This document shows, piece by piece, positions 2,000 through 24,035 of a stretch of 58,026 nucleotides of DNA; positions within the stretch are counted from its first letter, which is position 1; the number at the start of each line of letters is the position of its first letter. The stretch covers positions 1-58,026 of the forward strand of contig CAKPAL010000001.1 in the NCBI GenBank assembly GCA_934132925.1, written 5' to 3'. This stretch comes from an uncultured Bacilli bacterium. GTDB taxonomy: Bacteria > Bacillota_I > Bacilli_A > RF39 > UBA660. The translations under genes and the position numbers were made by a program. The notes under the pieces are model-generated. The model saw only the letters and a program-made list of their open reading frames with translations, made no database searches and was not told the DNA's origin.

Positions 2000-2503
2000 A
2001 TGAAGAAAGAAAGAGAAATACCTTTTAAGAATTATATAATATTGGCATTAGTATTGATACTTACTATAATAGGGGTTATATATATTTTTATGTGGTATAG
2101 TTCTAAAGAGAAGAGTAAATTAGAACTACCTATTTTGGATGATTATATAATGTCTATTAATTATAATGAGCTTAATGATTATATAGTAGAAAATAAGGAT
2201 GCAGTAATTTATACTTCAGTGTTAAATGATATTAATATTAGATTATTTGAAAATAAGTTTAAGAATGTTATTGTTAAGAATAATTTGAATAGTAGTATAC
2301 TATATTTAGATTTGACTGATGAAATTAAGGATAATAATGTACTTTTAAATATGGAAAAGAAGTATGGAACTAAAGTAGATATTCCTTCAGTTATGGTATT
2401 TAAAGATGGTGTTTTGACTGATGTTTATAATATAAAAGAGGATAATTATAATATTAAAAAATTAGAGAAATATTTAGAGAAAGAAGTTGTAATAAATGAT
2501 TAA
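2000..2503 (+). CDS. membrane-anchored thioredoxin-fold-like protein lacking CXXC
   Basis: N-terminal TM helix. The C-terminal region (AVIYTS...IPSVMVFKDGVL) resembles a thioredoxin fold, but no cysteine pair is present. Strong RBS. Confidence 0.4.
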   Translation: MKKEREIPFKNYIILALVLILTIIGVIYIFMWYSSKEKSKLELPILDDYIMSINYNELNDYIVENKDAVIYTSVLNDINIRLFENKFKNVIVKNNLNSSILYLDLTDEIKDNNVLLNMEKKYGTKVDIPSVMVFKDGVLTDVYNIKEDNYNIKKLEKYLEKEVVIND

Positions 2504-3005
2504 TATTGTTTTATATGAACCTGAAATACCAGAGAATACTGGTAATATAATGAGAACTTGTGCAGGAACTAATAGTCATCTTCATTTGGTAGAACCACTT
2601 GGTTTTGTTATGGATGAGAAGAGAATTAAAAGAAGTGGTGTTAATTATATTGATAAGGTTAATTATCAAAGATATATTGATTATGATGATTTTAAGGAAC
2701 ATAATGATGGAGAATATTTTTACTTTACTAGATATGGGACTAAACCTTATAGTGAGATTGATTTTAGTGATAAGAATAAGAATTATTATTTAATATTTGG
2801 TAAAGAGAGTACTGGTATTCCTAAGGAAATACTTCATGATAATTTAGAGAACTGCTACCGAATACCGACAAGTGATAATATTAGGGCTCTTAATTTGTCT
2901 AATTGTGTGGCATTAATTACTTATGAGGCTTTAAGGCAGCAGGGTTTTCCTAATTTACTTATGAGTGATCCTTTTAAAGGAGAAGATTATTTAGAAAAAG
3001 AATAG
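2496..3005 (+). CDS. trmL: tRNA (cytidine/uridine-34 2'-O)-methyltransferase, SpoU/TrmL family
   Basis: YEPEIPENTGNIMRTC...LHLVEPLGF and FGKESTGIP motifs, with the length expected for TrmL/CspR. Confidence 0.85.
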   Translation: MINIVLYEPEIPENTGNIMRTCAGTNSHLHLVEPLGFVMDEKRIKRSGVNYIDKVNYQRYIDYDDFKEHNDGEYFYFTRYGTKPYSEIDFSDKNKNYYLIFGKESTGIPKEILHDNLENCYRIPTSDNIRALNLSNCVALITYEALRQQGFPNLLMSDPFKGEDYLEKE

Positions 3006-3006
3006 C

Positions 3007-3441
3007 TTATTTAATAAAGCCATTCTTTTTTAATTTATCAATAATTTTGTTTACGGATACATCGCCTTCAATTCTAGTAGCGGTTGTTTTTTCTTCACCG
3101 TCTTTAATAAATACAGTGATTGGAGTACTACCATCAAAACTAATTTTTGATGTGAAGTCTTCTAATTCTTTTTTTGTATATTTATCTACATCAGTATAGT
3201 ATATTTTGATATTGTATTTACCTGCTACTTTTTTTAGTTTAGGTTTGTAATTATTACAATGAGTACAAGTAGTTCTAGAAATACATAATACAAAACTTTC
3301 TTTATTATCTAGTTTTTCTATTATTTCGTTATAATTTAATTTTACTAAGTTATTATCCATGGTAAAGATAAAATATCCAATACCTGCTCCTATAACAAAT
3401 AAAATAATGCATATAATAATGTTCTTTTTTTTATTTTTCAT
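3007..3441 (-). CDS. membrane-anchored thioredoxin-family thiol-disulfide oxidoreductase
   Basis: N-terminal TM helix followed by a thioredoxin fold with the active-site motif C-T-H-C (SRTTCTHCNNYKP). It is the only convincing minus-strand gene in the first 37 kb. Confidence 0.75.
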   Translation of the reverse strand: MKNKKKNIIICIILFVIGAGIGYFIFTMDNNLVKLNYNEIIEKLDNKESFVLCISRTTCTHCNNYKPKLKKVAGKYNIKIYYTDVDKYTKKELEDFTSKISFDGSTPITVFIKDGEEKTTATRIEGDVSVNKIIDKLKKNGFIK

Positions 3442-8204: not shown

Positions 8205-9542
8205 ATGGATGAGATGTTTACCCAGATAGATTTTGGTCCGCTAAAACCTTTCTTGGAAAATGATGATATTACCGATATTTCTTATAGTAATAATGGTCAG
8301 GTTTGGTTAAAGAGTTTATCACAAGGTGTATATAGAGTAGAGAACACTGGTATTGATAATCCTTTAATGGAAAAGATAGCGTTTCAGTGTGCTAATACAA
8401 TGGGAAAGTCATTCAATATGGCAAATCCATTTCTAGATGCTGAATCAGCTGAATTAAGAATGAACTTCGTTCATGATTCGATAGCTAAGAATGGTATTGC
8501 AGTACTTATAAGAAAAACCCCAGCAAAAATTAGATTACAAAAAGAAAAAATAATTGCAGATGATTATATAAGACTTAATATTCATGACTTTTTACTTAAG
8601 TGTGTTGAAGGCCATTGTAACATATTAGTAAGTGGTGAAACTGGTTCAGGTAAAACAGAGTTTATTAAGTATTTGGCTGCTCATACAAAAGAAAATGAGA
8701 AAATAATAACAATAGAGGATACTTTAGAGTTACACTTAGATAAGATATTTCCTCATAGAGATATTGTGGCTATGAAGACTAATAATATTGCTTCATACTC
8801 AGATGTTCTTGTTACTTGTATGAGACAGAATCCTAGATGGATTTTATTATCCGAGGTAAGAAGTGCTGAAGCGGTTATGGCTGTTCGTAATAGTATTTCT
8901 TCAGGACATAATATTTTATCTACTATTCATGCTGATAAAGCAGAATCTATTCCTAGTAGATTATATAGTTTGCTTGAAACTAATCAGGATGTTAGTCAAT
9001 TTTTGACTACTATTCATAGATATGTTCAACTTGGTGTACATATTAAGGCTTATTATAGTCAAAAGTATAAGAATTTTCATAGGGAGGTTTCTGAAGTAGT
9101 AGAATTTTATGTTACTGATGATAATAAACCAGAATATAAGATTCTTTATAGAAAGACTCCTGATGGTCATGAGACTACTGCTAATCCTAGTAAGCATTTA
9201 TTAGACTATTTGGAAAGTCAGGGTGTAATAATGCCTCCAGATATTCTTGTTAAAGAAGAATTTAAGGATGGCAGTGTTAATAATGAGACTAATGATTTTG
9301 TGGTAGATAATAGCAGTACAGTTAGTAATACTCAGGTACCTAGTACTGCTAATGTACAAAGTAATGTTGTTAGTCAAGGTCAAAGTATTTTGAGTGGTAT
9401 TGCTAATCAATATCAGAATATGCAGTCTGGACAAGCTATGAAAAATACTGTTAATCAAAATGTTAATAGTATTCCAAATATTTATGGTGCACAGACTATA
9501 ACTCCTAGTGGAGTAAATGTGATGAGTATAAATAATAGTTAA
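8205..9542 (+). CDS. tadA: CpaF/TadA-type secretion ATPase (T2SSE/VirB11 superfamily) with a Q/N/S-rich C-terminal tail
   Basis: Walker A VSGETGSGKTEF, RQNPRWILLSEVR (Walker B region), and His box GHNILSTIHA. The last ~80 aa are low complexity. Confidence 0.9.
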   Translation: MDEMFTQIDFGPLKPFLENDDITDISYSNNGQVWLKSLSQGVYRVENTGIDNPLMEKIAFQCANTMGKSFNMANPFLDAESAELRMNFVHDSIAKNGIAVLIRKTPAKIRLQKEKIIADDYIRLNIHDFLLKCVEGHCNILVSGETGSGKTEFIKYLAAHTKENEKIITIEDTLELHLDKIFPHRDIVAMKTNNIASYSDVLVTCMRQNPRWILLSEVRSAEAVMAVRNSISSGHNILSTIHADKAESIPSRLYSLLETNQDVSQFLTTIHRYVQLGVHIKAYYSQKYKNFHREVSEVVEFYVTDDNKPEYKILYRKTPDGHETTANPSKHLLDYLESQGVIMPPDILVKEEFKDGSVNNETNDFVVDNSSTVSNTQVPSTANVQSNVVSQGQSILSGIANQYQNMQSGQAMKNTVNQNVNSIPNIYGAQTITPSGVNVMSINNS

Positions 9543-9556
9543 GGGTAGGTGATATA

Positions 9557-10450
9557 ATGGAAATAGTTTTGATAGGAGTTATTATAATATTTATAATATC
9601 TTATCGTACAAAACAAGGTGAATCTGTATATAAGTTTATTTCAGAAACTGCTGTTAATACTTATAGAAAATTGGAACCTTACTCCTTTAAAGTAATGAGA
9701 GATAAAGTAAAAGAACTAGGACTAGAATATACACCTAGACAATACTTATTTCAAATACTAGCTTTTGCTGGATTATCTGGTGGAATAAGTTATCTATACT
9801 TTTATAATATATTTATAAGTGTCGGTTATATCTTAATAGCGGTATCTTTTATACCTTATATAACTTATTTAAGATGTAAAAGACAGTATAGTGAGTATTT
9901 ATTTGAACAAGTACAGGTATATTGTACTAATACGATAATGGAGTTTGCTACTACTGGGGCTTTTGTTAAGTCATTAGAGGGAGTAGTAGAATCAGGTATA
10001 TTGGAAGAACCTTTGGTATCTGATGTTAAGACAATGATAGCTTTATCTTATGAGAAGGGTGATGTCTATGATTCAATTAAGTATATGGATACTAAGTATC
10101 CATACTATATGGTTAAGAATATGCACCAATTATTCTTACAGGTAACTAAAGAGGGTGCTAAGGATACAGAAGAAACTTTTGAGAATATGTTATCTGATAT
10201 TGATATTTTAGTTGAAGGTGTATATAGAGATAGGACAGATAGAGCAGCCTTTCATAAGCAATTTATTACTTTTGGTGTTGCTTTATATGGTATGGTTGCA
10301 CTTATACAACTTTTGATAGGTCAAGAAACTTATATTGCTATGATAGATAATTTATTAATTAGATTATTTGTTCATGGGGTAGTAATAATTAATAGTTGTT
10401 TTCTCTTGAATGGAGAAAAATATTACAACGAGAATGTAGGTGCTGAATAA
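9557..10450 (+). CDS. tadB: TadB-like polytopic membrane protein (T2SSF domain)
   Basis: TM - cytoplasmic helical domain - C-terminal TMs, matching TadB/GspF-type platform architecture. Position follows the ATPase. Confidence 0.65.
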   Translation: MEIVLIGVIIIFIISYRTKQGESVYKFISETAVNTYRKLEPYSFKVMRDKVKELGLEYTPRQYLFQILAFAGLSGGISYLYFYNIFISVGYILIAVSFIPYITYLRCKRQYSEYLFEQVQVYCTNTIMEFATTGAFVKSLEGVVESGILEEPLVSDVKTMIALSYEKGDVYDSIKYMDTKYPYYMVKNMHQLFLQVTKEGAKDTEETFENMLSDIDILVEGVYRDRTDRAAFHKQFITFGVALYGMVALIQLLIGQETYIAMIDNLLIRLFVHGVVIINSCFLLNGEKYYNENVGAE

Positions 10451-11241
10451 TGTATTTAGAGCTTATTATAGTTACAGTTATTGTCTTCTATATATTTATT
10501 GTTAATAAGAAGATAAAGACTTCATTCTTTAGTAGTAATAGTAAACTATGTAATATTTTGAAAGAGAAAGATTATGATTTTCTATTAATTGCTAAATATG
10601 GTGATAGGGTATATGATCCTAATGAAGTATTTATGAAAAGAGTTAGAAATGGTGTTTTAATGGCTATTGGTTTAATATTTGTATTTATTTCTAATATGAG
10701 TTATTTAGCTGTTATTATTGCTTTAGTAATTGGTTATATAACTTTTAAGTATCAATATATCGGATTAAAAAGATGGTATAAAAGTCATTTGAATTATATT
10801 GATTCATTACTTCCATATTATTTGAAGACATTAGAGGTATTAATTCATCATTATACTGTACCAGTAGCTCTTGCTAAGAGTGTTGATGATGCTCCTGAAG
10901 TATTTAAACCAGGGCTTAAGAAAATGCTTAGTAAGATAGAGGCTGGCGATCAATCTATTGATCCTTATATGGATTTTGCTAAGGAGTATCCAGTAAGAGA
11001 TTCAATGAGAATGATGAGACTATTATATAGATTAGGGCTTGGTGAACAAGAAAAGAAGCATCAACAATTAGTATCGTTTTCTAGATCAGTATCTTCTCTT
11101 CAGGCTAAGGCTAGAGAAATGAAATACAAGGCTAGACTTGATACAATGGAAAAGAAAACTTTAGTAATGATGGTTGTTACTGGAGCAGGTTCTTTAATAC
11201 TATTATTGATTTCAATCTTTATGCTGATAACATCAGTATAA
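10450..11241 (+). CDS. tadC: TadC-like polytopic membrane protein (T2SSF domain)
   Basis: Same architecture as the preceding gene. The start overlaps its stop (TAATG). Confidence 0.65.
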   Translation: MYLELIIVTVIVFYIFIVNKKIKTSFFSSNSKLCNILKEKDYDFLLIAKYGDRVYDPNEVFMKRVRNGVLMAIGLIFVFISNMSYLAVIIALVIGYITFKYQYIGLKRWYKSHLNYIDSLLPYYLKTLEVLIHHYTVPVALAKSVDDAPEVFKPGLKKMLSKIEAGDQSIDPYMDFAKEYPVRDSMRMMRLLYRLGLGEQEKKHQQLVSFSRSVSSLQAKAREMKYKARLDTMEKKTLVMMVVTGAGSLILLLISIFMLITSV

Positions 11242-12969: not shown

Positions 12970-13006
12970 AAGATAAAAGTAAAATAATTGACTTTTATCT
13001 TTTTTT
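12970..13006 (+). terminator. rho-independent terminator ending the Tad-like operon
   Basis: AAGATAAAAGT - 10-nt loop - ACTTTTATCTT (11 bp) followed by a T-run. Confidence 0.7.
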
Positions 13007-13016
13007 AGTGTATGAT
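12988..13016 (+). promoter_or_regulatory. sigma-A-type promoter overlapping the terminator
   Basis: TTGACT - 17 nt - TATGAT, 25 nt upstream of the ATG at 13042. Confidence 0.55.
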
Positions 13017-13041
13017 ATATTTAGATTTAAGGAGGGAAATT

Positions 13042-13374
13042 ATGTATTTATTAGCAGGAACAGATATTTGTGGTAATCCTAGCTTAGCACCTTTATGGAA
13101 TATTGTAGGAACAGTAATAAATATTATTTGGATAGGAGTACCTATATTATTAATTATATTAGGGTCTATTGATTTAGGTAAAGCAGTAATTTCAAGTAAA
13201 GAAGATGAAGTTAAGAAAGCTAAAAAATCACTTTTAAATAGACTTATTTATGCTGTACTTGTTTTCTGTGTAGTTTGGATTGTTCAAATAGTAATGGATG
13301 CAATTAGCAAAATTGGTATTGAAGGAACAGATACTACTTCATGGGCAAATTGTTGGAAACAAATAAGATCTTAA
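13042..13374 (+). CDS. VirB2/TrbC-like two-TM hairpin (pilin-like) protein, free-standing copy
   Basis: I prefer the ATG at 13042 (RBS AAGGAGGG) over the track start at 13012. The 110-aa protein has two TM helices flanking a basic loop (KAVISSKEDEVKKAKKSLLNR), with Cys near both termini. It is clearly homologous to the C-terminus of the 14599 ORF. Confidence 0.55.
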   Translation: MYLLAGTDICGNPSLAPLWNIVGTVINIIWIGVPILLIILGSIDLGKAVISSKEDEVKKAKKSLLNRLIYAVLVFCVVWIVQIVMDAISKIGIEGTDTTSWANCWKQIRS

Positions 13375-13387
13375 TTATAAATATTTT

Positions 13388-13414
13388 AGAAATCATGAAA
13401 AAATGATTTCTTTT
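13388..13414 (+). terminator. rho-independent terminator (copy 1 of a duplicated hairpin)
   Basis: AGAAATCAT-gaaaaa-ATGATTTCT followed by TTTT. Confidence 0.7.
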
Positions 13415-13452
13415 GTTAATTGATGTAAAATAGAAATAATGGAGGTGCAGTA

Positions 13453-13713
13453 ATGGAAAATAACAAATTAGTAGTTAATGGAGAAAATGGTAATAAAATT
13501 ACTTTAAATGTTATAGATATTATAGCAATCAAGGAATTAAATAAAGAATATATTATATATACAATCGAAGGAGATAGTAGTGATAATATATATGCTTCAA
13601 TTTTTGTTGAAGATGAAACTTCATATACTATCAAGACAATAGAAAATGATGATGAATGGGAAATCGTTCAAAATATAATTAATGAGATGAGTTCAAAGCA
13701 AGAGGGGGATTAG
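13453..13713 (+). CDS. DUF1292-family small acidic protein
   Basis: The 86-aa translation (...ITLNVIDIIAIKELNKEYIIYTIEGD...IYASIFVEDETSYTIKTIENDDEWEIVQNIINEM) fits the DUF1292 pattern. Confidence 0.65.
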   Translation: MENNKLVVNGENGNKITLNVIDIIAIKELNKEYIIYTIEGDSSDNIYASIFVEDETSYTIKTIENDDEWEIVQNIINEMSSKQEGD

Positions 13714-13716
13714 GAA

Positions 13717-14454
13717 ATGTATAGTACAGAGCAACTATTAGATATGTTAAACAAAAAGTTAGAAGATTATAAATTGGAAGCTACCGAATTAGAAGAAGCT
13801 GCAGATAAATCAGTTAATCCAAGTGAATATAGAATGACAGTAGAATATATTAAAAATAAATATAAAACTGCTGAAAAAATAAAGTATATAGAAAATGTAA
13901 TATCAAATACTGAAAAAAGAATGAATAATTTGCAAAGTATTGATAATAATATTGGTTCAAATATAAGAGATAAAGCAATAATTAGAAATCTTGGATATAT
14001 GCATAGTGGAAGTCAAGAAAGAATAGCAAGATTAAAAAACAAAACTGGATTAATTCAAGAAAAGCAAAGAAAGTTTGCTGATAAAAAATATAATATAATA
14101 ACAAGGCGAATAGAAAAACAAGCTGAAATATCAGGTGAATTAAAAAAAACTCATATACAAGAACATAATACACAAGAACAAATTGATGATATACCAGATA
14201 AAATAGAAAATTATGAACAAAAATTGGATGACTGGAGATCGTTAGGATTATTTGGATTATTTAGTGGTAAGGAGTTACCAAATTTTGTGAAAAAGACTTT
14301 AGTTTTTGGCTATACTGTTAGTAGTTATGCTAAAAAATCTGTTTTGTGTGCTCGACTATTAAGATTAAAAAGTAAGAAGGCAATTTATGAAGAAATAAAC
14401 AAAAGAGTTCTTTATCGTGAGGCAAATATAATAAATAGTGGAAAAGTAAAATAA
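13717..14454 (+). CDS. coiled-coil protein of unknown function with a hydrophobic C-terminal segment
   Basis: 245 aa, K/E/Q-rich with a heptad-like composition; LGLFGLFSG segment near the C-terminus. It starts 4 nt after the DUF1292 gene. Confidence 0.55.
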   Translation: MYSTEQLLDMLNKKLEDYKLEATELEEAADKSVNPSEYRMTVEYIKNKYKTAEKIKYIENVISNTEKRMNNLQSIDNNIGSNIRDKAIIRNLGYMHSGSQERIARLKNKTGLIQEKQRKFADKKYNIITRRIEKQAEISGELKKTHIQEHNTQEQIDDIPDKIENYEQKLDDWRSLGLFGLFSGKELPNFVKKTLVFGYTVSSYAKKSVLCARLLRLKSKKAIYEEINKRVLYREANIINSGKVK

Positions 14455-14505
14455 TTTTAATACTTTTTATAATATGTATAATTGTTATTGAAGATGATAT
14501 TTAAA

Positions 14506-14535
14506 AGAAATCATAAAAAAATGATTTCTTTTTTA
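14506..14535 (+). terminator. rho-independent terminator (copy 2 of the duplicated hairpin)
   Basis: AGAAATCAT-aaaaaa-ATGATTTCT followed by TTTTT. It differs from the copy at 13388 by one loop base. Confidence 0.7.
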
Positions 14536-14598
14536 CTTTTTGTATGCTATAATTAGGTTATAGTGATTTATTGTGCTTGATTGGAGTGAAAAAGTAAA

Positions 14599-15642
14599 AT
14601 GAGAAAGAAAATATTATTAAGTTTAACTATTATTATATCAATGATTGTGGGTGTTAATAGTGTTATGGCTGCTACTGAACTTACTTGTGTTTACAAGAAA
14701 GGAGTTGCGGTTTTTGGGCAACCTGCTGTTAAAATTGTTCAATATGATGATGGTACTAAAAAAGTATATATAAATAAGAAAGAAAAAGAACCAGATGTTG
14801 ATAGTGAATCATGGCTTTCTGCTTCAAGGGCAAAAGTTACTGAGGAATTGTCATCTTGTCCAAAATATATAAATTATAAAGATGGAACAGTTATTTTTAA
14901 TAAAGAAAAAAAATCTGGCTATACGGAATTAATTAAAGAATCTAATACAATACCAGAAGTTGATAAAACATATTCAAATATTCATGATATACCTGATATA
15001 AAAAATACTACTTGGTTGAAAGAATGTACATACAGAAAAGTTGGTGGAGATGATTATATTTTCTTGTTTTTTAATAATGATAAAATGAAGTTATTTCATG
15101 GTATTTCTGATGTAACCGAAACTGTTGGAAATCATGCTATTGGTATGACATCAAATGATATTAAACTTGATGATTTGCTAAAGACTTATAATAAAAGCAA
15201 TTCTTGTCCGAATGCTGTATATATTAATAGTAAAATATCTTCAGGTTTTACTGCAGCAACTATTACAACTTATTCATTAAAGAATGATAATGGTGCAACA
15301 TTTTTACTTAATAGGACACAAAATGGAGAAAGTACATCTGAAGATCCTGTAGATGATGATTCATGTGATTTATTTGACAAAGATTTAATAGATTTTATTA
15401 ATAAAATAATGCAATGGATAAGAATATTCGTTCCAATTTTATTAATTGGTTTAGGAATATTGGATTTTACAAAGGCAGTTTTTTCAAAGAGTGAAGATGA
15501 TATGAAAAAATCAAGAGAGAAATTTATTAAAAGGGTTATAGCAGCGGTAGCAGTATTTTTGGTTCCGATGTTTGTTAATTTAATTTTAGATTTAGCTAAT
15601 AGTGTATGGAGTTGGATTAATCCAAATACTTGTATTAAATAG
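14599..15642 (+). CDS. secreted two-module ectodomain fused to a C-terminal VirB2/TrbC-like hairpin
   Basis: Signal peptide (...NSVMA). Two ~100-aa modules each carry C...SCP.(Y)IN. The C-terminal ~95 aa (15349-15642) align with the 13042 protein (VPILLIgLG.lDftKAVfSksEDdmKK...). Confidence 0.6.
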   Translation: MRKKILLSLTIIISMIVGVNSVMAATELTCVYKKGVAVFGQPAVKIVQYDDGTKKVYINKKEKEPDVDSESWLSASRAKVTEELSSCPKYINYKDGTVIFNKEKKSGYTELIKESNTIPEVDKTYSNIHDIPDIKNTTWLKECTYRKVGGDDYIFLFFNNDKMKLFHGISDVTETVGNHAIGMTSNDIKLDDLLKTYNKSNSCPNAVYINSKISSGFTAATITTYSLKNDNGATFLLNRTQNGESTSEDPVDDDSCDLFDKDLIDFINKIMQWIRIFVPILLIGLGILDFTKAVFSKSEDDMKKSREKFIKRVIAAVAVFLVPMFVNLILDLANSVWSWINPNTCIK

Positions 15643-17467: not shown

Positions 17468-17791
17468 GTGAATGGTTATTTAGTACCTGCTAATGCTAAA
17501 AGGGGTACATTGATATTTAATATGTTTAGACCTATTGATTTGATAATGTTTGGTGTAGGTGCTGGTTTATCTTTGTTACTTTTGATGATAGTTCAATCAG
17601 ATAGTACAGTACTTGTATTATTATCTTGTTTACCTGTTGGTATAACTGGGTTATTAGTAGTACCTATACCTAATTATCATAATGTACTTTGCGCATTACA
17701 GAGTGTATTAAGGTTCTATAAAGAAAGAAGAAATTATATATGGAAAGGTTGGTGTTTTTATGACGAGCTTGCAGACAACAGTAAAAAATAA
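17468..17791 (+). CDS. PrgI-family (VirB3-like) small membrane protein
   Basis: 107 aa. N-terminus ...VPANAKRGTLIFNMFRPIDLIMFGVGAG followed by two TM helices, immediately upstream of VirB4. Confidence 0.55.
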   Translation: MNGYLVPANAKRGTLIFNMFRPIDLIMFGVGAGLSLLLLMIVQSDSTVLVLLSCLPVGITGLLVVPIPNYHNVLCALQSVLRFYKERRNYIWKGWCFYDELADNSKK

Positions 17792-18320
17792 TTCTAAATA
17801 TACTGAAGATTGGTTACCTATTAGAAATATATCTAATGGTATGATTGTTTTAGAGAATAAGAAAAAAGTAACGGGTGTTAAGATAAGACCTAGAAATATC
17901 TTTATTCTTGATCAAAGTAGTCAAGATAGTACTTTAATTGCTTTAAAGAACTTCTATAATACTATTGATTTTGAGTTTTGGTTAATTTCTGCTGATCGTC
18001 CTGTTGATTTGAATAATTATTTAGCAAGATTACAACTTTTGTATAATCAGACTTCGAATCCTGCTGTTAGAAAGCTTATTAATCAGGATATAGATAAGGC
18101 TAATGATTTTATGAATAATAATATTACTGATACTGAGTATTATATATTATTTAAGGAAAAAAATGATGATTTAATTCAGAAGAGACTTAGGACTTTAATT
18201 ACAGGCCTTGCTAATTCTGGATTGGAGGCTGTTCAGGTATCTAATGATGATTTAAGAGTTATATTAGATAATTTCCTTAATAGCGGAATGACTACTAATT
18301 TTGGGACGGTGATTGCGTAA
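17760..18320 (+). CDS. VirB4-type ATPase, N-terminal domain as a separate ORF
   Basis: EDWLPIRNISNGMIVLENKKKVTGVKIRPRNIFILDQSSQDS...NFYNTIDFEFWLIS matches the N-terminal region of Gram-positive VirB4 proteins of the ConE, Orf16 and TcpF type. It ends with a TAATG overlap onto the next ORF. Confidence 0.6.
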   Translation: MTSLQTTVKNNSKYTEDWLPIRNISNGMIVLENKKKVTGVKIRPRNIFILDQSSQDSTLIALKNFYNTIDFEFWLISADRPVDLNNYLARLQLLYNQTSNPAVRKLINQDIDKANDFMNNNITDTEYYILFKEKNDDLIQKRLRTLITGLANSGLEAVQVSNDDLRVILDNFLNSGMTTNFGTVIA

Positions 18321-20104
18321 TGAAGTTTAAAAGTGAATTAGCTCCGAAAGGATTACAATTTAATCCATCTGATTTTGTTATTAGTGATAAGTATGCAACT
18401 ATACTTACTGTAATATCTTATCCTAGATTTATTGGACCTGGTTATTTATCTAATTTAACTAATATGTCTGGTGTAAAGGTAGTTATAAAGCATATACCTG
18501 TTCCTTTTTCTGTTCTTGCTAAGATGTTAAATAAAGAGATTTCTGATTTAAGAAGTAGATATCAACAGGAGAAAGATAGAACAATTCAAGAAAGAATAAG
18601 ACAAGATGTTGATTCGTTAGAATATTTTATTCAACAGTTTACTGCATCACAGGCTAAAACTTTTGATTTTCAAATGCATATAATGATTACTGCTAATACA
18701 AGAGAAGAACTTGAAATGAAAAAGGTAAGTATTAAGAATTATATGGATGCTATGGAACTTAGAGCAGTACCTTTGAGATTTGAACAAGAAAGAGTTTTGA
18801 AATCAATACTTCCTATATTTGAGAAACAACCTATTGAGGATAGAATTGGTACTCCAATGCCTTCACCAACTATGGCTGCGATGTATCCGTTTATTTTTGA
18901 TAGTATAAAGGATGATGGTTTATCAACATTACTTGGTGTAGATTTTTCTGGTGGTGTAGTTTTGTTTAATCAGTTTTTATATCAATTAAAGAAAGAGAGT
19001 AACAGAAATAATGCTAATATGATTATATTAGGTACTTCTGGTAGTGGTAAATCTACAGCGGCTAAATTAATACTTCGTAGTCATATTAGAAATGGTTATC
19101 AGATAGTAGCTGTTGATCCTGAGGGTGAAATTAGCGAAATGACCAAGATGTATGGTGGCGATGTCGTTGATTTAGGTAAAGGTGGAGAATATGGTATGGT
19201 AAATCCACTTGAAGTAATAATGGATGCTGATGAGTCTGAAATTAGAAATGGTCTTGGTTATACTGTTTTAAATAAGACTTTACAATCTTTGAAGGCATTT
19301 ATGAAATATTATTCTCCTGATATAGAAGAGGATGTGTTAGCTTTATTTAGTGGTGTTGTTCAAGATACTTATGCTAGATTTGGTATAACATTTACATCTG
19401 ATTTTTCAAAGTTTACTTCTAAAGATTATCCTATCTTTAGTGATGTTTATGTAACTGTAACTAGCAGATTAACATCTATGACAGAGAAGACTCATGAAAG
19501 AGATGTAATGGAAAGACTTGAATTAAAGTTAAGACCATTAGTAAGAGAGCTTCAATATTATTTTAATGGTCATACTTCTATTAATACTGAGAGTTCGTTT
19601 TTGGTATTTAATATTAAAGAACTTATGAATTCTGATGCTAATATTAGAAATGCTTTATTATTTAATATTCTTAAGTTTGCTTGGGGATTATGTTTAAATC
19701 CTAATGTTAATACTGTATTATCTGTTGATGAAGCTCATGTATTATTAGGAGCTAAAAATGAACTTGGTGCAGAGTTTTTAGCACAAGTTCAAAGAAGAGC
19801 TAGAAAGTATAATACTGGAACTATAATTATAACACAACAACCTTCTGATTTTGTTGCTGATGGTATATTGATGCATGGTAAAGCTATATTTGATAATTCT
19901 TCTTATTACTTGGTAATGGGATTGAAGAAGCAAGCAGTAGAAGATTTATCGATGTTAATAGATTTAAATGATAATGAAAAAGAATCAATAAAGAGATTTA
20001 GTCAGGGAGAGGCTTTATTTGTATGTGGTAATAGAAGGATGCAAGTAAATGTTATTGTAACTGAAGAAGAGTTAGAATCGTTTGGTTCTGGTGGTGGTTT
20101 ATAA
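18320..20104 (+). CDS. virB4: VirB4-type T4SS ATPase, central and C-terminal NTPase part
   Basis: Walker A ILGTSGSGKST, DPEGE, NPLE, Walker B SVDEAHVLL and ITQQPSD. Confidence 0.9.
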   Translation: MKFKSELAPKGLQFNPSDFVISDKYATILTVISYPRFIGPGYLSNLTNMSGVKVVIKHIPVPFSVLAKMLNKEISDLRSRYQQEKDRTIQERIRQDVDSLEYFIQQFTASQAKTFDFQMHIMITANTREELEMKKVSIKNYMDAMELRAVPLRFEQERVLKSILPIFEKQPIEDRIGTPMPSPTMAAMYPFIFDSIKDDGLSTLLGVDFSGGVVLFNQFLYQLKKESNRNNANMIILGTSGSGKSTAAKLILRSHIRNGYQIVAVDPEGEISEMTKMYGGDVVDLGKGGEYGMVNPLEVIMDADESEIRNGLGYTVLNKTLQSLKAFMKYYSPDIEEDVLALFSGVVQDTYARFGITFTSDFSKFTSKDYPIFSDVYVTVTSRLTSMTEKTHERDVMERLELKLRPLVRELQYYFNGHTSINTESSFLVFNIKELMNSDANIRNALLFNILKFAWGLCLNPNVNTVLSVDEAHVLLGAKNELGAEFLAQVQRRARKYNTGTIIITQQPSDFVADGILMHGKAIFDNSSYYLVMGLKKQAVEDLSMLIDLNDNEKESIKRFSQGEALFVCGNRRMQVNVIVTEEELESFGSGGGL

Positions 20105-20126
20105 TCACTATTAGGTGGTGAATATT

Positions 20127-20903
20127 ATGAATGAAGAAGAAACAAAAGAAGTAAAAACAAAAACTTTATGGAATATGATGTCATTAAAGACTAAATTAAT
20201 TGTTATAGGAAGCTCTTTAGGTTTCTTTTTCATCGTTATATTTATTTGTGTTATTATTGCTCCACTTATGGAAATTGGGGTAATTGATATTGGTAAAGGT
20301 GGGCCTAATGGTAGTTATCCTCTTGATTATTCTGATATTGGGGAGTCTGCGACTTATTGGTGGCCGATTGGTAGTGCTGATACAAGAAATGTTAAGGGTG
20401 TATTAGTGGCGGATGGCCTGCCAGTTTCTACGACAATATCTTCTTATTTTGGAAATAGAAAAGATCCTTTTACTGGTGTTGCCAGTAATCATAGTGGTAC
20501 TGATATTGCGGCGAATGATGGTAGTGTTGGTACTATTAATATAATTGCCGCTAAAGAAGGAACTGTTATATATCCTGCTGCTGGTGATGTTACTAGTTGT
20601 CCATCTAATTCTAATTTGGATATTTGTGGTGGCGGTTATGGTAATTATGTGATGATAGAACATGGTGATGGTACTATTACTTTATATGGTCATATGGCTG
20701 CTAATTCTATTACTGTTACTGCCGGTAATCCTGTTATGCAGGGACAAGTAATTGGTAAAATGGGTAGTAGTGGTCGTTCTACTGGTTCACATTTACATTT
20801 TGAAGTGAGGGTCAATGGTAGTAGAGTTGATGGGTTAAACTATGTATCGATGAATAATCCTAGACCTGTTATTGATAATAGTTCTGATGATGAGGATATT
20901 TAA
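20127..20903 (+). CDS. membrane-anchored M23 (LytM-type) peptidoglycan endopeptidase
   Basis: I prefer the ATG at 20127 (RBS AGGTGGTG). TM helix, then HSGTDIAA...GNYVMIEHGDG..TLYGHM...GSSGRSTGSHLHFEV. Confidence 0.9.
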   Translation: MNEEETKEVKTKTLWNMMSLKTKLIVIGSSLGFFFIVIFICVIIAPLMEIGVIDIGKGGPNGSYPLDYSDIGESATYWWPIGSADTRNVKGVLVADGLPVSTTISSYFGNRKDPFTGVASNHSGTDIAANDGSVGTINIIAAKEGTVIYPAAGDVTSCPSNSNLDICGGGYGNYVMIEHGDGTITLYGHMAANSITVTAGNPVMQGQVIGKMGSSGRSTGSHLHFEVRVNGSRVDGLNYVSMNNPRPVIDNSSDDEDI

Positions 20904-20913
20904 GGGAGATAAA

Positions 20914-21777
20914 ATGAAGAAAGATGATATTAAAACATTTATTACAATAATTATAATATGTACTTTAATAGTTGGATTGGTTCTAATACTGAATAGAAAG
21001 AGTAATAGTGAAAAATTAGAAGTTGTTAATGATTATAATAGTTTTTTTACTACAACTAATTATGTTAATAATTTTTTAAGTTATTCTAAAGATTCTAGTA
21101 AGTTATATGATGTTATATATAGTAGTTATATAGATGATAATAATATTACTAAAGATAATATTTTTGATTATATTAAATCTTATCAAGGTGATGTATCTAT
21201 TAAAGTTACTGATATGAAATATGTTAAGGTAAAAGATAATTATATTTATTATGTTAAAGGTAAATTATATCAAAGTACTTTTGATAGTGTTGAAGTTATA
21301 GAAGATAATTTTGAGGTAGTAGTGTTAGTGGATATTGATACTTCTTCTTATAGTATATATCCTATAGATGATAATGATTATAAAGATATAATTAATGGTA
21401 TTAAGAAAATTAAAATAGAAAATAATTCTAATAATGTTGTTAAGACATCTAGTTCTATAAGTAAAGAACAAATGTGTGTTGTGTATTTATCTGATTATAT
21501 AGATAAATTAAATAATGATATTAATTCTGCTTATGATGTATTGAGTAATAGTATGAAGAAAAAATATGTATCTTTAGATAATTTTAGATTATATATAAAT
21601 AATAACTTAAATAGAATTACAACTGATGCTGATAAGTGTTCTTTAGAGAAAGTTAAGAATAAGAGAATATATACTGTTTTAGATAAAAATAGTAATAAGT
21701 ATGTGTTTGTTGAAACGAATATTATGAATTATAAAGTTGATTTTTATTTGTATGATAATAGTGGTGAAAATAAATAG
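20914..21777 (+). CDS. membrane-anchored protein; VirB8-like (TcpC/PrgL-type) candidate
   Basis: I prefer the ATG at 20914 (RBS AAGGGAGA) over the track start at 20872. One N-terminal TM plus a ~250-aa extracytoplasmic part that seems to consist of two similar beta-rich halves. The call rests on position and architecture only. Confidence 0.35.
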   Translation: MKKDDIKTFITIIIICTLIVGLVLILNRKSNSEKLEVVNDYNSFFTTTNYVNNFLSYSKDSSKLYDVIYSSYIDDNNITKDNIFDYIKSYQGDVSIKVTDMKYVKVKDNYIYYVKGKLYQSTFDSVEVIEDNFEVVVLVDIDTSSYSIYPIDDNDYKDIINGIKKIKIENNSNNVVKTSSSISKEQMCVVYLSDYIDKLNNDINSAYDVLSNSMKKKYVSLDNFRLYINNNLNRITTDADKCSLEKVKNKRIYTVLDKNSNKYVFVETNIMNYKVDFYLYDNSGENK

Positions 21778-21803
21778 CAGGAAGTGTTATTTATTTTCTT
21801 CTT
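21766..21803 (+). terminator. weak AT-rich terminator candidate
   Basis: GAAAATAAATA - 11-nt loop - TATTTATTTTC followed by TTCTTT. Confidence 0.35.
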
Positions 21804-21830
21804 TAGTATGAAAAATGAGAATTAAAAGCA

Positions 21831-21859
21831 TTTACAATTTAGAGTATTAATGCTATAAT
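21831..21859 (+). promoter_or_regulatory. sigma-A-type promoter for the coupling-protein gene
   Basis: TTTACA - 17 nt (ending in TGc) - TATAAT. Confidence 0.6.
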
Positions 21860-21887
21860 AATGTTAGTAATTTGGAGGAAGACAGGT

Positions 21888-24035
21888 ATGAAAATAAAGG
21901 TAGAAAAAAAAGATTTAATTATATTTATAGCATTTTGTGTATTTTTATTATATTTATGTGCAATAGGAGTTCTTAATGCTTCTAGTATAGCAACAGAAGG
22001 TAGGTTTTATGGATTACTTCCATTTAAAGCTTTTACTCCTAGATATATTGGAATGACTTTTTTCTTATTTTTAGCAGCTTTGATTGGTATTTTTATGGCT
22101 GTTAAGTCTTATATTTTTGATCGTGATAAAGGATTTGGTTTTACTATAGGTGGAAAGAAGGAAAAAGGGTATTCTAAATGGGCTACTGATAAAGAATTTA
22201 AAAATGGTCTATCAGTGGTTAATATTCAAGATGAAAAAACAGAGGCTGCTGGTATACCTCTTTATAGTAAAAAAGGTAAGATGTGGGTAGATAATGGTGA
22301 GGACCATTATTTAGTAATGGGTGCTACTGGTAGTGGTAAAACAGTAATAGTAGCAAAACCAATGATTAAGTTACTTGCTAAACATAATGAATCAATGATA
22401 TTAACTGATCCAAAAGGTGAATTGTATGAAGAGACTGCTGAATTGTTAAAATCAGAGGGGTATAATATTATTACTTTAAACTTTAGAGATCCTGGTCATG
22501 GTAATGCCTGGAATCCGATGAGTCTTCCATATCAGTTATATAAGGAAGGTAATACAGATAAGGCAATTGAATTGTTAGATGACTTGGCTTTAAATATTTT
22601 GTATGAGGAAAAAAATAGTGGGGATCCTTTTTGGGAAAAAACTGCTGCTGATTATTTTACGGGGCTTGCTTTAGGTTTGTTTGAGGATGGTACACCAGAA
22701 CAAGTTAATTTAAATAGTTTAAATTTAATGTGTAGTTTAGGTGAAGAAAGATTTGGAGGTCCAAATAATAATTATATTAAAGAGTATTTTAATGGTAAGG
22801 ATCCTTCTAAACCCGCTTATATTAATGCTTCGGGTACAGTGTTTACTGCTGATGAAACTAAACAGGGTATTATAGCAACATTTAAACAAAAAATTAAATT
22901 GTTTTCTTCAAGAGAAAATCTATCAGAAATGTTATCATATAGTGATTTTGATATGAGAAATATTGGTAGAAATAAAACTGCTGTTTTCTTGATTGTTCAA
23001 GATGAAAAGAAGACTCTTCACCCACTTGCTACAATATTTATTAAACAATGTTATGAAACTTTAATTGATGTTGCTCAAGAGAGTGGTGGTAAGTTACCTT
23101 ATAGAACCAATTTTATTCTTGATGAGTTTGCTAATATGCCACCTTTAAAAGATGTTACAACAATGGTTACTGCTGCTAGAAGTAGACTAATTAGATTTAC
23201 ATTTATTATTCAGAACTTTGCACAACTTACACAAGTTTATGGTAAAGAAAATGGGGATACTATTCGTGGTAATTGTAATTTGGTTTACTTAATAAGTAGT
23301 GAAATTGCTGCTTTGGAAGAAATAAGTAAAATGTGTGGAGAAGTTAAATCTAAAGAAAAGGAGAAAACAGCTTCAACACCACTTGTTACAGTGAGCGATC
23401 TTCAAAGACTTAGTAAATTTGAAATTATAGTATTAAGAAGAAGAATGTTTCCTTATAAGACCAGATTTCAAACAGATTTTGAGGTTGATTGGGGTAGAAC
23501 ATATCCAAAAGCGGTACCACCTGTTAGAGAGAAAAGAGAAGTTCAATTATTTGATATAAGAGAATTCGTTAAAGAAAAGAAAAAAGAGAAAATGGAAGCA
23601 ATGGGAACAAATCCATTTACTGGTAGTAATCCATTTGCAGGTGCTAGTCCATTTGGTGCGTCTCCATTTGGAGGAGCAAATCCTTTTATGGGAGTGAATA
23701 GTCCAATGGCTGGTATACCTTTTATGAATGATGATAAAAATGATAATGATGATGGTGGTTTTAATATTGATGATTTAGTTAAAAAAATAGATGCTAAAAT
23801 AGCGGAAATTGAAAAAGAAGAAGAAACTAAAAAGTTAAATGAAATAGAAGAAGTACCAATTTCTGAACCTGTTAAGATGGAAGATAAAACTAATGTTATT
23901 GATGTAGAAGAGACTAATAATACTTCTAATGAAATTGTTAGTGAAAATAAAAATATAGAAGAACCACTTAAGAATATGTATGAAGAGAATACAAATGATG
24001 ATGATTTCTTTGATGATTTCTTTAGTGATGATTAA
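21888..24035 (+). CDS. virD4: VirD4/TraG-type type IV coupling protein
   Basis: I prefer the ATG at 21888 (RBS GGAGGAAG). Two N-terminal TMs, Walker A VMGATGSGKT, DPKGELY, NAWNPM and Walker B FILDEFANM. The low-complexity C-terminal tail has (N/S)PF-G repeats and an acidic end. Confidence 0.9.
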   Translation: MKIKVEKKDLIIFIAFCVFLLYLCAIGVLNASSIATEGRFYGLLPFKAFTPRYIGMTFFLFLAALIGIFMAVKSYIFDRDKGFGFTIGGKKEKGYSKWATDKEFKNGLSVVNIQDEKTEAAGIPLYSKKGKMWVDNGEDHYLVMGATGSGKTVIVAKPMIKLLAKHNESMILTDPKGELYEETAELLKSEGYNIITLNFRDPGHGNAWNPMSLPYQLYKEGNTDKAIELLDDLALNILYEEKNSGDPFWEKTAADYFTGLALGLFEDGTPEQVNLNSLNLMCSLGEERFGGPNNNYIKEYFNGKDPSKPAYINASGTVFTADETKQGIIATFKQKIKLFSSRENLSEMLSYSDFDMRNIGRNKTAVFLIVQDEKKTLHPLATIFIKQCYETLIDVAQESGGKLPYRTNFILDEFANMPPLKDVTTMVTAARSRLIRFTFIIQNFAQLTQVYGKENGDTIRGNCNLVYLISSEIAALEEISKMCGEVKSKEKEKTASTPLVTVSDLQRLSKFEIIVLRRRMFPYKTRFQTDFEVDWGRTYPKAVPPVREKREVQLFDIREFVKEKKKEKMEAMGTNPFTGSNPFAGASPFGASPFGGANPFMGVNSPMAGIPFMNDDKNDNDDGGFNIDDLVKKIDAKIAEIEKEEETKKLNEIEEVPISEPVKMEDKTNVIDVEETNNTSNEIVSENKNIEEPLKNMYEENTNDDDFFDDFFSDD

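Follow-up and report, generated by a model that had tools for sequence, protein, structure and literature searches.

Why does an uncultured Bacilli bacterium's type IV secretion system (T4SS) locus encode the same two-helix membrane hairpin twice, once as a free-standing protein of 110 amino acids (aa) and once at the C-terminus of a 347-aa protein that carries a large ectodomain predicted to be exported? The question is posed by contig CAKPAL010000001.1 of assembly GCA_934132925.1 (58,026 nucleotides; hereafter the window), which has ~27% G+C and nearly all genes on the plus strand. The window makes up all of contig C1 in a metagenome-assembled genome (MAG) of the order RF39 that spans 869 kb and is 55% complete. 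The reading that we favour, at a probability of about 0.55, is that the small protein is a core subunit assembled by the VirB6/VirB4 machinery, and that the large protein is a minor specificity or adhesin subunit which joins the same assembly through its hairpin as an analog of VirB5.

The 347-aa protein ends in ~92 residues that are paralogous to the 110-aa protein, far beyond chance. Residues 18-86 of the small and 263-331 of the large protein align without a gap and are identical at 29/69 positions (42%; BLASTP E=1e-14), and the profiles of the two sub-families align over 73 columns with a probability of 98.9% (hhalign, E=3e-17), in full agreement with the residue-by-residue kinship proposed in the initial annotation of this locus. 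On profile evidence, the shared hairpin module is a member of PF18895 (T4SS_pilin, VirB2-like; model of ~71 positions, gathering cut-off 26.6 bits). The large protein passes this cut-off with 29.8 bits in hmmscan, where model positions 7-71 align with residues 265-329, and with 34.1 bits in a six-frame genome search, the short second-gene ortholog of locus L050 passes it with 28.7 bits, and among 22 homologs of the small protein, 14 have PF18895 as their top family (best E 3.7e-6). The T4SS core neighbours that go with a PF18895 pilin (VirB4, VirB6, and VirB3) are all encoded in the locus as well. Profile searches gave PF18895 and not an unrelated family such as the holins. A third hairpin paralog is found elsewhere in the same MAG (G000), at C3:276-1532 on the minus strand and away from T4SS genes; its 418 aa comprise a Sec signal peptide, a ~190-aa orphan domain, a ~85-residue poly-Asn linker, and a Cys-hairpin-Cys module. 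A guess that its ectodomain is a SleB-type cell-wall hydrolase was dropped, as it has no Pfam match.

Both proteins have the two transmembrane (TM) segments around a basic loop that the initial annotation had described. Loop residues 46-67 of the small protein hold 7 Lys/Arg versus 3 Asp/Glu and residues 291-312 of the large protein 8 versus 4, while the tails are neutral or acidic, so that by the positive-inside rule the loop would be cytoplasmic and both termini would lie outside. Every N-extended form of the hairpin carries a Sec signal peptide, and that of the 347-aa protein, whose N-terminus reads MRKKILLSLTIIISMIVGVNSVMA|ATE, is kept in all 20 homologs of alignment A1. At the opposite end, two proteins encoded within T4SS loci of relatives (L019:6419-7411 and L026:4262-5203) combine an N-terminal hairpin with a C-terminal CHAP (29.4 bits) or Peptidase_C39_2 (60.3 bits) domain. 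The charge balance, the signal peptides, the exo-domains at either end of the hairpin, and the third paralog all support the predicted N-out/C-out topology.

This topology bears directly on the cysteines that flank the hairpin, one before helix 1 and one near the C-terminus. C10/C104 of the small protein and C256/C345 of the large one are invariant in alignments A2 and A1, respectively, and every topology indicator agrees in placing them, by prediction, outside rather than in the cytoplasm. Of 180 hairpin open reading frames (ORFs) inspected, 176 have both cysteines, two have lost both, and two are cut by contig ends; not a single intact ORF retains just one. Such a both-or-none pattern is as predicted for a disulfide, a bond that had been considered plausible from the two sequences of the window and that gains weight with this larger sample and with the adjacent membrane-anchored CTHC thioredoxin, whose place is conserved in synteny. 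The two ORFs devoid of both cysteines (L045:6447-6890 and L055:6398-6835) are second-gene orthologs, and the small genes beside them keep both. In T-pilin and TrbC, the termini are cyclised head-to-tail by a peptide bond, and a disulfide linking the external tails of the Bacilli hairpins would mimic this cyclisation.

The large protein was described at the outset as a hairpin that follows a signal peptide and a Cys-containing ectodomain, and this fusion is real and conserved. An AF2 model built on the 20-sequence alignment (mean predicted local distance difference test score, pLDDT, 76.9) comprises two beta-rich modules at residues 28-115 and 141-237, here called d1 and d2, followed by a disordered linker (240-255) and the helical hairpin. 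The d1 strands score ~85-90 and most of residues 31-210 score 81-90, and the stretch around the linker is markedly acidic (9 Asp/Glu versus 2 Lys/Arg in residues 238-262). Neither Pfam nor Foldseek searches of PDB and BFVD recognise d1 or d2, which points to an orphan fold, and the AF2 models of both hairpin proteins retrieved nothing at E<0.05 from these two structure databases. A profile of the ectodomain alone, searched against 1.84 billion representative proteins, found 130 proteins, 119 of them new. The hairpin is present in 113 of these 119, and the other six are ORFs of 101-266 aa that are probably fragments; the ectodomain was never seen free-standing, which indicates that it exists only within the hairpin fusion.

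In relatives, d1 and d2 behave as separate hidden Markov model (HMM) modules. The hairpin is preceded by d1-d2 in 61 proteins, by d1 alone in 44, by d2 alone in 22, by d1-d1 in 20, by d1-d1-d2 in 4, and by four copies of d1 in a single protein, so that d1 occurs in 1-4 tandem copies and its tandem duplication in relatives is clear. The related claim that the ectodomain of the 347-aa protein is itself a duplication fared less well. The C-x-Y and C-P motifs do recur in both halves, each of which has a conserved cysteine pair (C30/C87 in the first, C143/C203 in the second), and weak cross-matches between d1 and d2 reach independent E-values of 3e-4 to 6e-4, but hhalign of the two halves returns a probability of 0.35% and a global score no better than those of 30 column shuffles. 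Thus, sequence comparison lends weak support to an internal d1/d2 duplication. For the large protein, homologs form 51 clusters, and identity over full-length alignments is 31-49%, plus 97% in one near-identical cluster. The mean pairwise identity among orthologs is 0.69 for the hairpin versus 0.28-0.30 for the ectodomain, at least nine ectodomain groups that BLAST does not link occur among the loci, and the N-terminal extension ranges from ~40 to ~600 residues. The ectodomain is an orphan, modular, and fast-evolving unit.

To follow the pair across relatives, the hairpin HMM was run over 86 related loci. The order TadZ-like protein, small hairpin, N-extended hairpin, VirB6-like protein, VirB3-like protein, and N-terminal VirB4 part is seen in most of them, including the position of the VirB6-like gene directly downstream of the large hairpin gene, and some loci have three hairpin copies. 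Orthologous loci do keep both copies, which the initial annotation had named as a point to check. In many genera the second gene is short (137-190 aa), with a signal peptide and a segment of 25-40 residues before the hairpin. Of the genomes sampled from the window's order, 293 of 301 carry the hairpin family, at 1-10 copies each, which takes in 123 of the 127 genera; carriers come nearly all from one family and have genomes of 0.6-1.6 Mb at >=90% completeness, and in other families of the class the hairpin was found in 2 of ~70 genomes. All homologs derive from MAGs of uncultured gut 'Bacilli', 'Tenericutes', CAG:302, CAG:321, Ca. Faecimonas or Ca. Onthousia. The T4SS with its hairpin pair looks like a vertically inherited core system. 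Tandem arrays of 2-3 hairpin-bearing frames (313-464 aa) were also observed in two genomes, at G008:C2:17756-22001 and G010:C9:24848-27279, on contigs other than the one with the genome's best small-pilin match, and suggest families of hairpin-anchored surface proteins.

The chromosomal character of the system is in line with what was found around it. The genes of the Tad/Flp operon and of the T4SS make up a single conserved chromosomal block (window 3545-24035) with housekeeping flanks, namely a SpoU methylase and a membrane-anchored CTHC thioredoxin upstream, and RNase Y (PF12072), whose gene follows VirD4, a GH3 glycosidase, and FtsY downstream. No integrase or relaxase occurs among the scanned ORFs of window 315-28530. 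Besides, relaxases were searched in four genomes, namely this MAG, the closest complete chromosome (G001, CP091726.1, 1.46 Mb) and two other relatives (G002 and G003), with a search aimed at PF03432 and PF02486 and leaving MOBV, MOBQ, MOBF, and MOBH aside. PF02486 is absent from all four; PF03432 has no match in this MAG and sub-threshold matches in two others (those of CP091726.1 are stop-interrupted fragments), and the sole intact PF03432 match in the four genomes is ~220 kb away from the T4SS locus. Within these two Pfam families, then, the relaxase that a conjugative T4SS encodes along with the system is missing near the locus. None of 72,556 plasmids matched the small pilin in tblastn at E<=1, so that it is not a known plasmid-borne gene.

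The assignment of roles leans on the small gene. Its homologs form 340 clusters of 100-130 aa at 55-96% identity, and its AF2 model comprises helices at residues 13-51, 54-90, and 99-109. The small protein is highly conserved, a promoter-like site and a terminator-like hairpin of its own flank its gene, and the ribosome-binding site is strong; we take this protein to be the likely core subunit, and probably the major one. The start codon at 13042 is the right one, given that AAGGAGG precedes it, that the alternative ATG at 13012 falls within the -10 hexamer, and that the lengths of the homologs suit ATG 13042.

We propose that both hairpin proteins would serve a chromosomal, relaxase-free, monoderm-type T4SS that is coupled to the Tad/Flp operon. 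Each hairpin would keep its basic loop on the cytoplasmic side of the membrane and its termini outside, where a disulfide would tie the termini together, and the VirB6-like/VirB4 machine, with the VirB6-like protein as the presumed assembly platform, would draw the small protein from the membrane into an extracellular conduit or short pilus. The 347-aa protein would enter this assembly by its hairpin and bear, on the flexible acidic linker, its exported, disulfide-stabilised modular ectodomain, which is fast-evolving and swapped between lineages and would most likely act as the minor, specificity-determining (adhesin or tip-like) part and make the protein a functional analog of VirB5. Polymerisation, the major/minor stoichiometry, and the adhesin role are what we infer from these features taken together.

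Several results weigh against this proposal. The small protein alone scores 18.6-18.9 bits against PF18895 (E ~0.002), under the cut-off, and neither hairpin protein matches TrbC/VirB2 (PF04956) at E<=1. A profile of the small pilin searched against PDB sequences retrieved no pilin, just noise from G-protein-coupled receptors (GPCRs), and Foldseek of the hairpin against PDB gave generic TM hairpins only (E>1), the fold being too simple to discriminate. The likeness to VirB2/TrbC conjugative pilins that had been noted from the sequence thus stands for the two-helix hairpin, the basic loop, and the predicted N-out/C-out topology; no similarity to PF04956 or to the solved pilins (F, pED208, T-pilus, R388) was seen, and kinship with classical VirB2 rests on the PF18895 definition, topology, and gene context. 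In addition, the hairpin also bears enzymes (CHAP, C39-like) and occurs off the T4SS locus (the third paralog and the arrays of G008 and G010), which would be equally in keeping with a fibre subunit and with a general module for anchoring or docking. Finally, by our own geometric estimate, a ~230-residue domain on each subunit would crowd a VirB2-type helix, so that, if there is a pilus, the fusion could only be one of its minor components or be set on a long linker.

These points lend themselves to a different explanation, which we regard as possible though on balance doubtful: the hairpin may not polymerise and may be a two-helix module for anchoring or docking, which would bring exported domains, among them orphan beta modules and CHAP and C39-like enzymes, to the T4SS or its vicinity, with the 110-aa copy as a structural membrane subunit of the channel and no pilus at all. 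Its fusion at either end to diverse exo-domains, cell-wall-type enzymes included, and its extra copies off the T4SS locus would fit such a module, and monoderm conjugation systems are generally viewed as pilus-less (PMC4027160). There is also a precedent of position, since PrgF of pCF10, a 75-aa protein with two TM segments, is encoded upstream of the VirB6-like PrgH; as with PrgF/Maff2 and Mbov_0395 (NF045849), a small two-TM hairpin is encoded directly 5' of a VirB6-like gene in a monoderm T4SS operon. The likeness ends there. PrgF was rejected as a homolog (hmmsearch 0.7 bits, hhalign probability 0.2%), it has neither flanking cysteines nor tails, and it matches Maff2 itself, if weakly, while the hairpin family is assigned to the PF18895 pilins. 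The mycoplasma family of pilin-like proteins, to which the initial annotation had looked for a relative, was not recovered either, with NF045849 at 12.5 and 10.6 bits (E=0.09 and 0.35) under a cut-off of 40 bits. Moreover, the extreme conservation of the small gene, together with its separate promoter-like site and terminator-like hairpin, recalls a major structural subunit, and the invariant pair of cysteines at the termini, with the disulfide that it implies, recalls the cyclisation of T-pilin/TrbC.

The disordered acidic linker directly before C256 raises another option, namely that the large protein is a pre-pro-pilin or carrier whose ectodomain is cleaved at this linker after Sec export and is then discarded as an oversized pro-region or secreted as a factor, leaving a second, slightly different bare pilin. 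Canonical VirB2, TraA, and TrbC are end-processed, and the 137-190 aa orthologs of the second gene in many genera imply that the large N-domain is dispensable for the conserved role. Nonetheless, this option seems improbable, as neither a conserved cleavage motif nor a dedicated peptidase was identified, the ectodomain was not found free of the hairpin other than in short, probably cut ORFs, and its conserved cysteine pairs and confident fold suggest a functional domain. Least credible of all is the idea that the two hairpins have nothing to do with secretion and are holin-like, bacteriocin-immunity or generic small membrane proteins. Two-helix hairpins are indeed generic, the Foldseek hits are unspecific, and weak Pfam noise matches to GPCR and AgrB models occur among the hairpin proteins, but the fixed position between the Tad genes and VirB6/VirB3/VirB4 in most of the 86 loci, the PF18895 assignment, and the N-out/C-out topology with exported fusion partners all speak for a secretion-related role, and the context is not that of a lysis cassette.

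Returning to the favoured division into core and minor subunit, its closest counterpart is found in Patescibacteria. The T4SSs of Ca. Southlakia epibionticum and TM7x contain arrays of VirB2-like PF18895 pilins, are chromosomal and mostly relaxase-free, and their pilin arrays are essential for epibiosis alongside type IV pili (PMC12102498, PMC12857230). The Bacilli locus shares with them PF18895, at least two divergent paralogs beside VirB6/VirB3/VirB4, and a chromosomal, relaxase-poor, monoderm-type T4SS in a reduced genome. It also shares the co-occurrence of a type IV-filament system (type IV pili there, Tad/Flp here), a pairing reported as essential in Saccharibacteria. In contrast, the host is here a member of the Bacillota (class Bacilli), and one paralog has an exported N-extension of 40-600 residues, with C-terminal enzymes in some relatives, fusions which are not described for Patescibacteria (PMC12102498, PMC12857230). 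The Cys pair that would clamp the termini is a feature of the Bacilli hairpins, known here from the Bacilli side alone. VirB2 homologs have been stated to be absent from Gram-positive T4SSs with Patescibacteria as the sole exception (PMC12857230, PMC4027160), and for the Patescibacterial pilins an origin by co-option from diderm systems was left open (PMC12102498). Set against this literature, three things appear new, i.e., a near-universal core pilin pair in a Bacillota lineage, hairpins that are naturally fused, at either end, to large, modular exported domains or to enzymes, and a conserved disulfide clamp as deduced from the Cys pattern. The Bacilli would offer a second, independent setting for monoderm 'pilins', one that bears on the origin of those of Patescibacteria.

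The comparison with the classical pilins VirB2/TrbC/TraA (PF04956; T-pilus, RP4, and F-like systems) is looser. The two-helix hairpin, the basic loop, the (here predicted) external termini, and the gene position beside VirB3/VirB4/VirB6 are shared, and the termini of T-pilin/TrbC are covalently joined, by a peptide bond there and by a putative disulfide here; sequence similarity, however, is undetectable, the small protein has no cleavable leader, and the envelope here is monoderm. To our knowledge, no natural VirB2 carries a large folded domain. As for VirB5, the minor pilin and tip adhesin, the 347-aa protein would resemble it in role as a low-copy, variable surface subunit that gives binding specificity and possibly nucleates assembly on VirB6. 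VirB5 differs in being soluble and helical, without a VirB2-like hairpin and without homology, whereas the adhesin-like part is here fused to the pilin module itself. The arrangement of signal peptide, ectodomain, linker, and hairpin, as well as the C-terminal enzyme fusions, suggests a simple natural way to display variable domains on a secretion apparatus.

We also entertain, as a speculation that we consider rather unlikely as a whole, that an entire family of prevalent, uncultured gut Bacilli with reduced genomes, probably RF39/UBA660, uses disulfide-ringed VirB2-like pilins to build the pilus or conduit of a relaxase-free T4SS similar to that of Patescibacteria and diversifies partner recognition by swappable pilin-adhesin and pilin-enzyme fusions. 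Were it true, these bacteria would have a contact-dependent, possibly epibiotic or parasitic lifestyle, and VirB2-like pilins would be an ancestral trait of monoderm T4SSs rather than one that Patescibacteria acquired. The Bacilli in question are common gut inhabitants of humans and animals, show numerous auxotrophies, and were never cultured, and RF39 in particular is highly reduced and auxotrophic (PMC6784871). A conserved contact apparatus in uncultured, auxotrophic gut bacteria would thus give a concrete lead to how nutrients or partners are obtained.

The features of the locus are collected in Table 1. The standard genetic code was used throughout, as reading TGA as Trp (code 4) raises the number of ORFs of at least 300 aa merely from 322 to 335.

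Table 1. Annotated features of the hairpin pair and its surroundings, in window coordinates.
Feature	Position	Strand	Basis or remark
Membrane-anchored thioredoxin, CTHC motif, N-terminal anchor	3007..3441	-	PF00085; upstream locus edge
T2SSE ATPase of the Tad/Flp operon, upstream of the hairpin pair	8205-9542		Pfam
Two ORFs at the TadB/TadC positions	9557-10450, 10450-11241		no Pfam match
52-aa Flp-like ORF, weak TadE-like ORF, and 333-aa ORF without Pfam match			upstream Tad/Flp operon
Promoter-like site TTGACT-17-TATGAT	12988..13016	+	consensus scan 10/12; consensus match only
Shine-Dalgarno AAGGAGG, 6 nt 5' of ATG 13042	13029..13035	+	read from sequence
Small hairpin protein, 110 aa: N-tail with C10, helix 1, basic loop, helix 2, C-tail with C104	13042..13374	+	
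AT-rich stem-loop AGAAATCAT-GAAAAA-ATGATTTCT then TTTTG, terminator-like	13388..13415	+	read from sequence; missed by G+C-based scan
Inserted cassette: DUF1292 protein (86 aa) and 245-aa coiled-coil protein	13453..14454	+	PF06949, 38.6 bits
Near-identical second stem-loop AGAAATCAT-AAAAAA-ATGATTTCT and T-run, closes cassette	14506..14535	+	read from sequence
347-aa protein ORF	14599-15642	+	read from sequence
Sec-type signal peptide, residues 1-24 (VMA|A)	14599..14670	+	sequence features; hydrophobic segment 1-29
Ectodomain module d1, residues 25-118, beta-rich, C30 and C87 conserved	14671..14952	+	
Ectodomain module d2, residues 136-240, beta-rich with one helix, C143 and C203 invariant	15004..15318	+	
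Acidic disordered linker, residues 241-255	15319..15363	+	pLDDT <50 for 240-255
C-terminal hairpin module: C256, helix 261-295, basic loop, helix 299-340, C345	15364..15642	+	
VirB6-like polytopic membrane protein, 595 aa	15656..17443	+	PF19597 TrbL_4, 35.2 bits; NF045848 and NF045889 weak
VirB3-like gene (VirB3/TcpE-like, 107 aa) and VirB4 as two coupled ORFs (186 + 594 aa)	17468..20104	+	NF045975
M23 peptidase, 301-aa unknown protein, VirD4 coupling protein	20115..24035	+	PF01551, PF02534; T4SS block end

Between the two hairpin genes, the two stem-loops bracket the DUF1292 and coiled-coil genes as a cassette that is no part of the pilin pair. Among the 86 loci this insertion between the hairpin genes was detected in the window alone; a similar unit of two genes occurs in L001-L003, there upstream of the small gene, and in other relatives it was not detected. 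Further downstream, the two VirB4 halves (window 17760-20104) overlap at TAATG, and NF045975 covers them at model positions 98-277 and 294-893. This split is kept in L001-L005 (188 + 594 aa, the N-part matching PF26593, TraC-like) and is thus neither an assembly artefact nor a pseudogene. At the upstream edge, the thioredoxin occupies the equivalent position in L004 and L005, and in the window a DUF6568/PedC-like membrane protein also borders the locus beside it (2000-3441). The two are candidate extracytoplasmic oxidoreductases for the exported Cys proteins of the locus.

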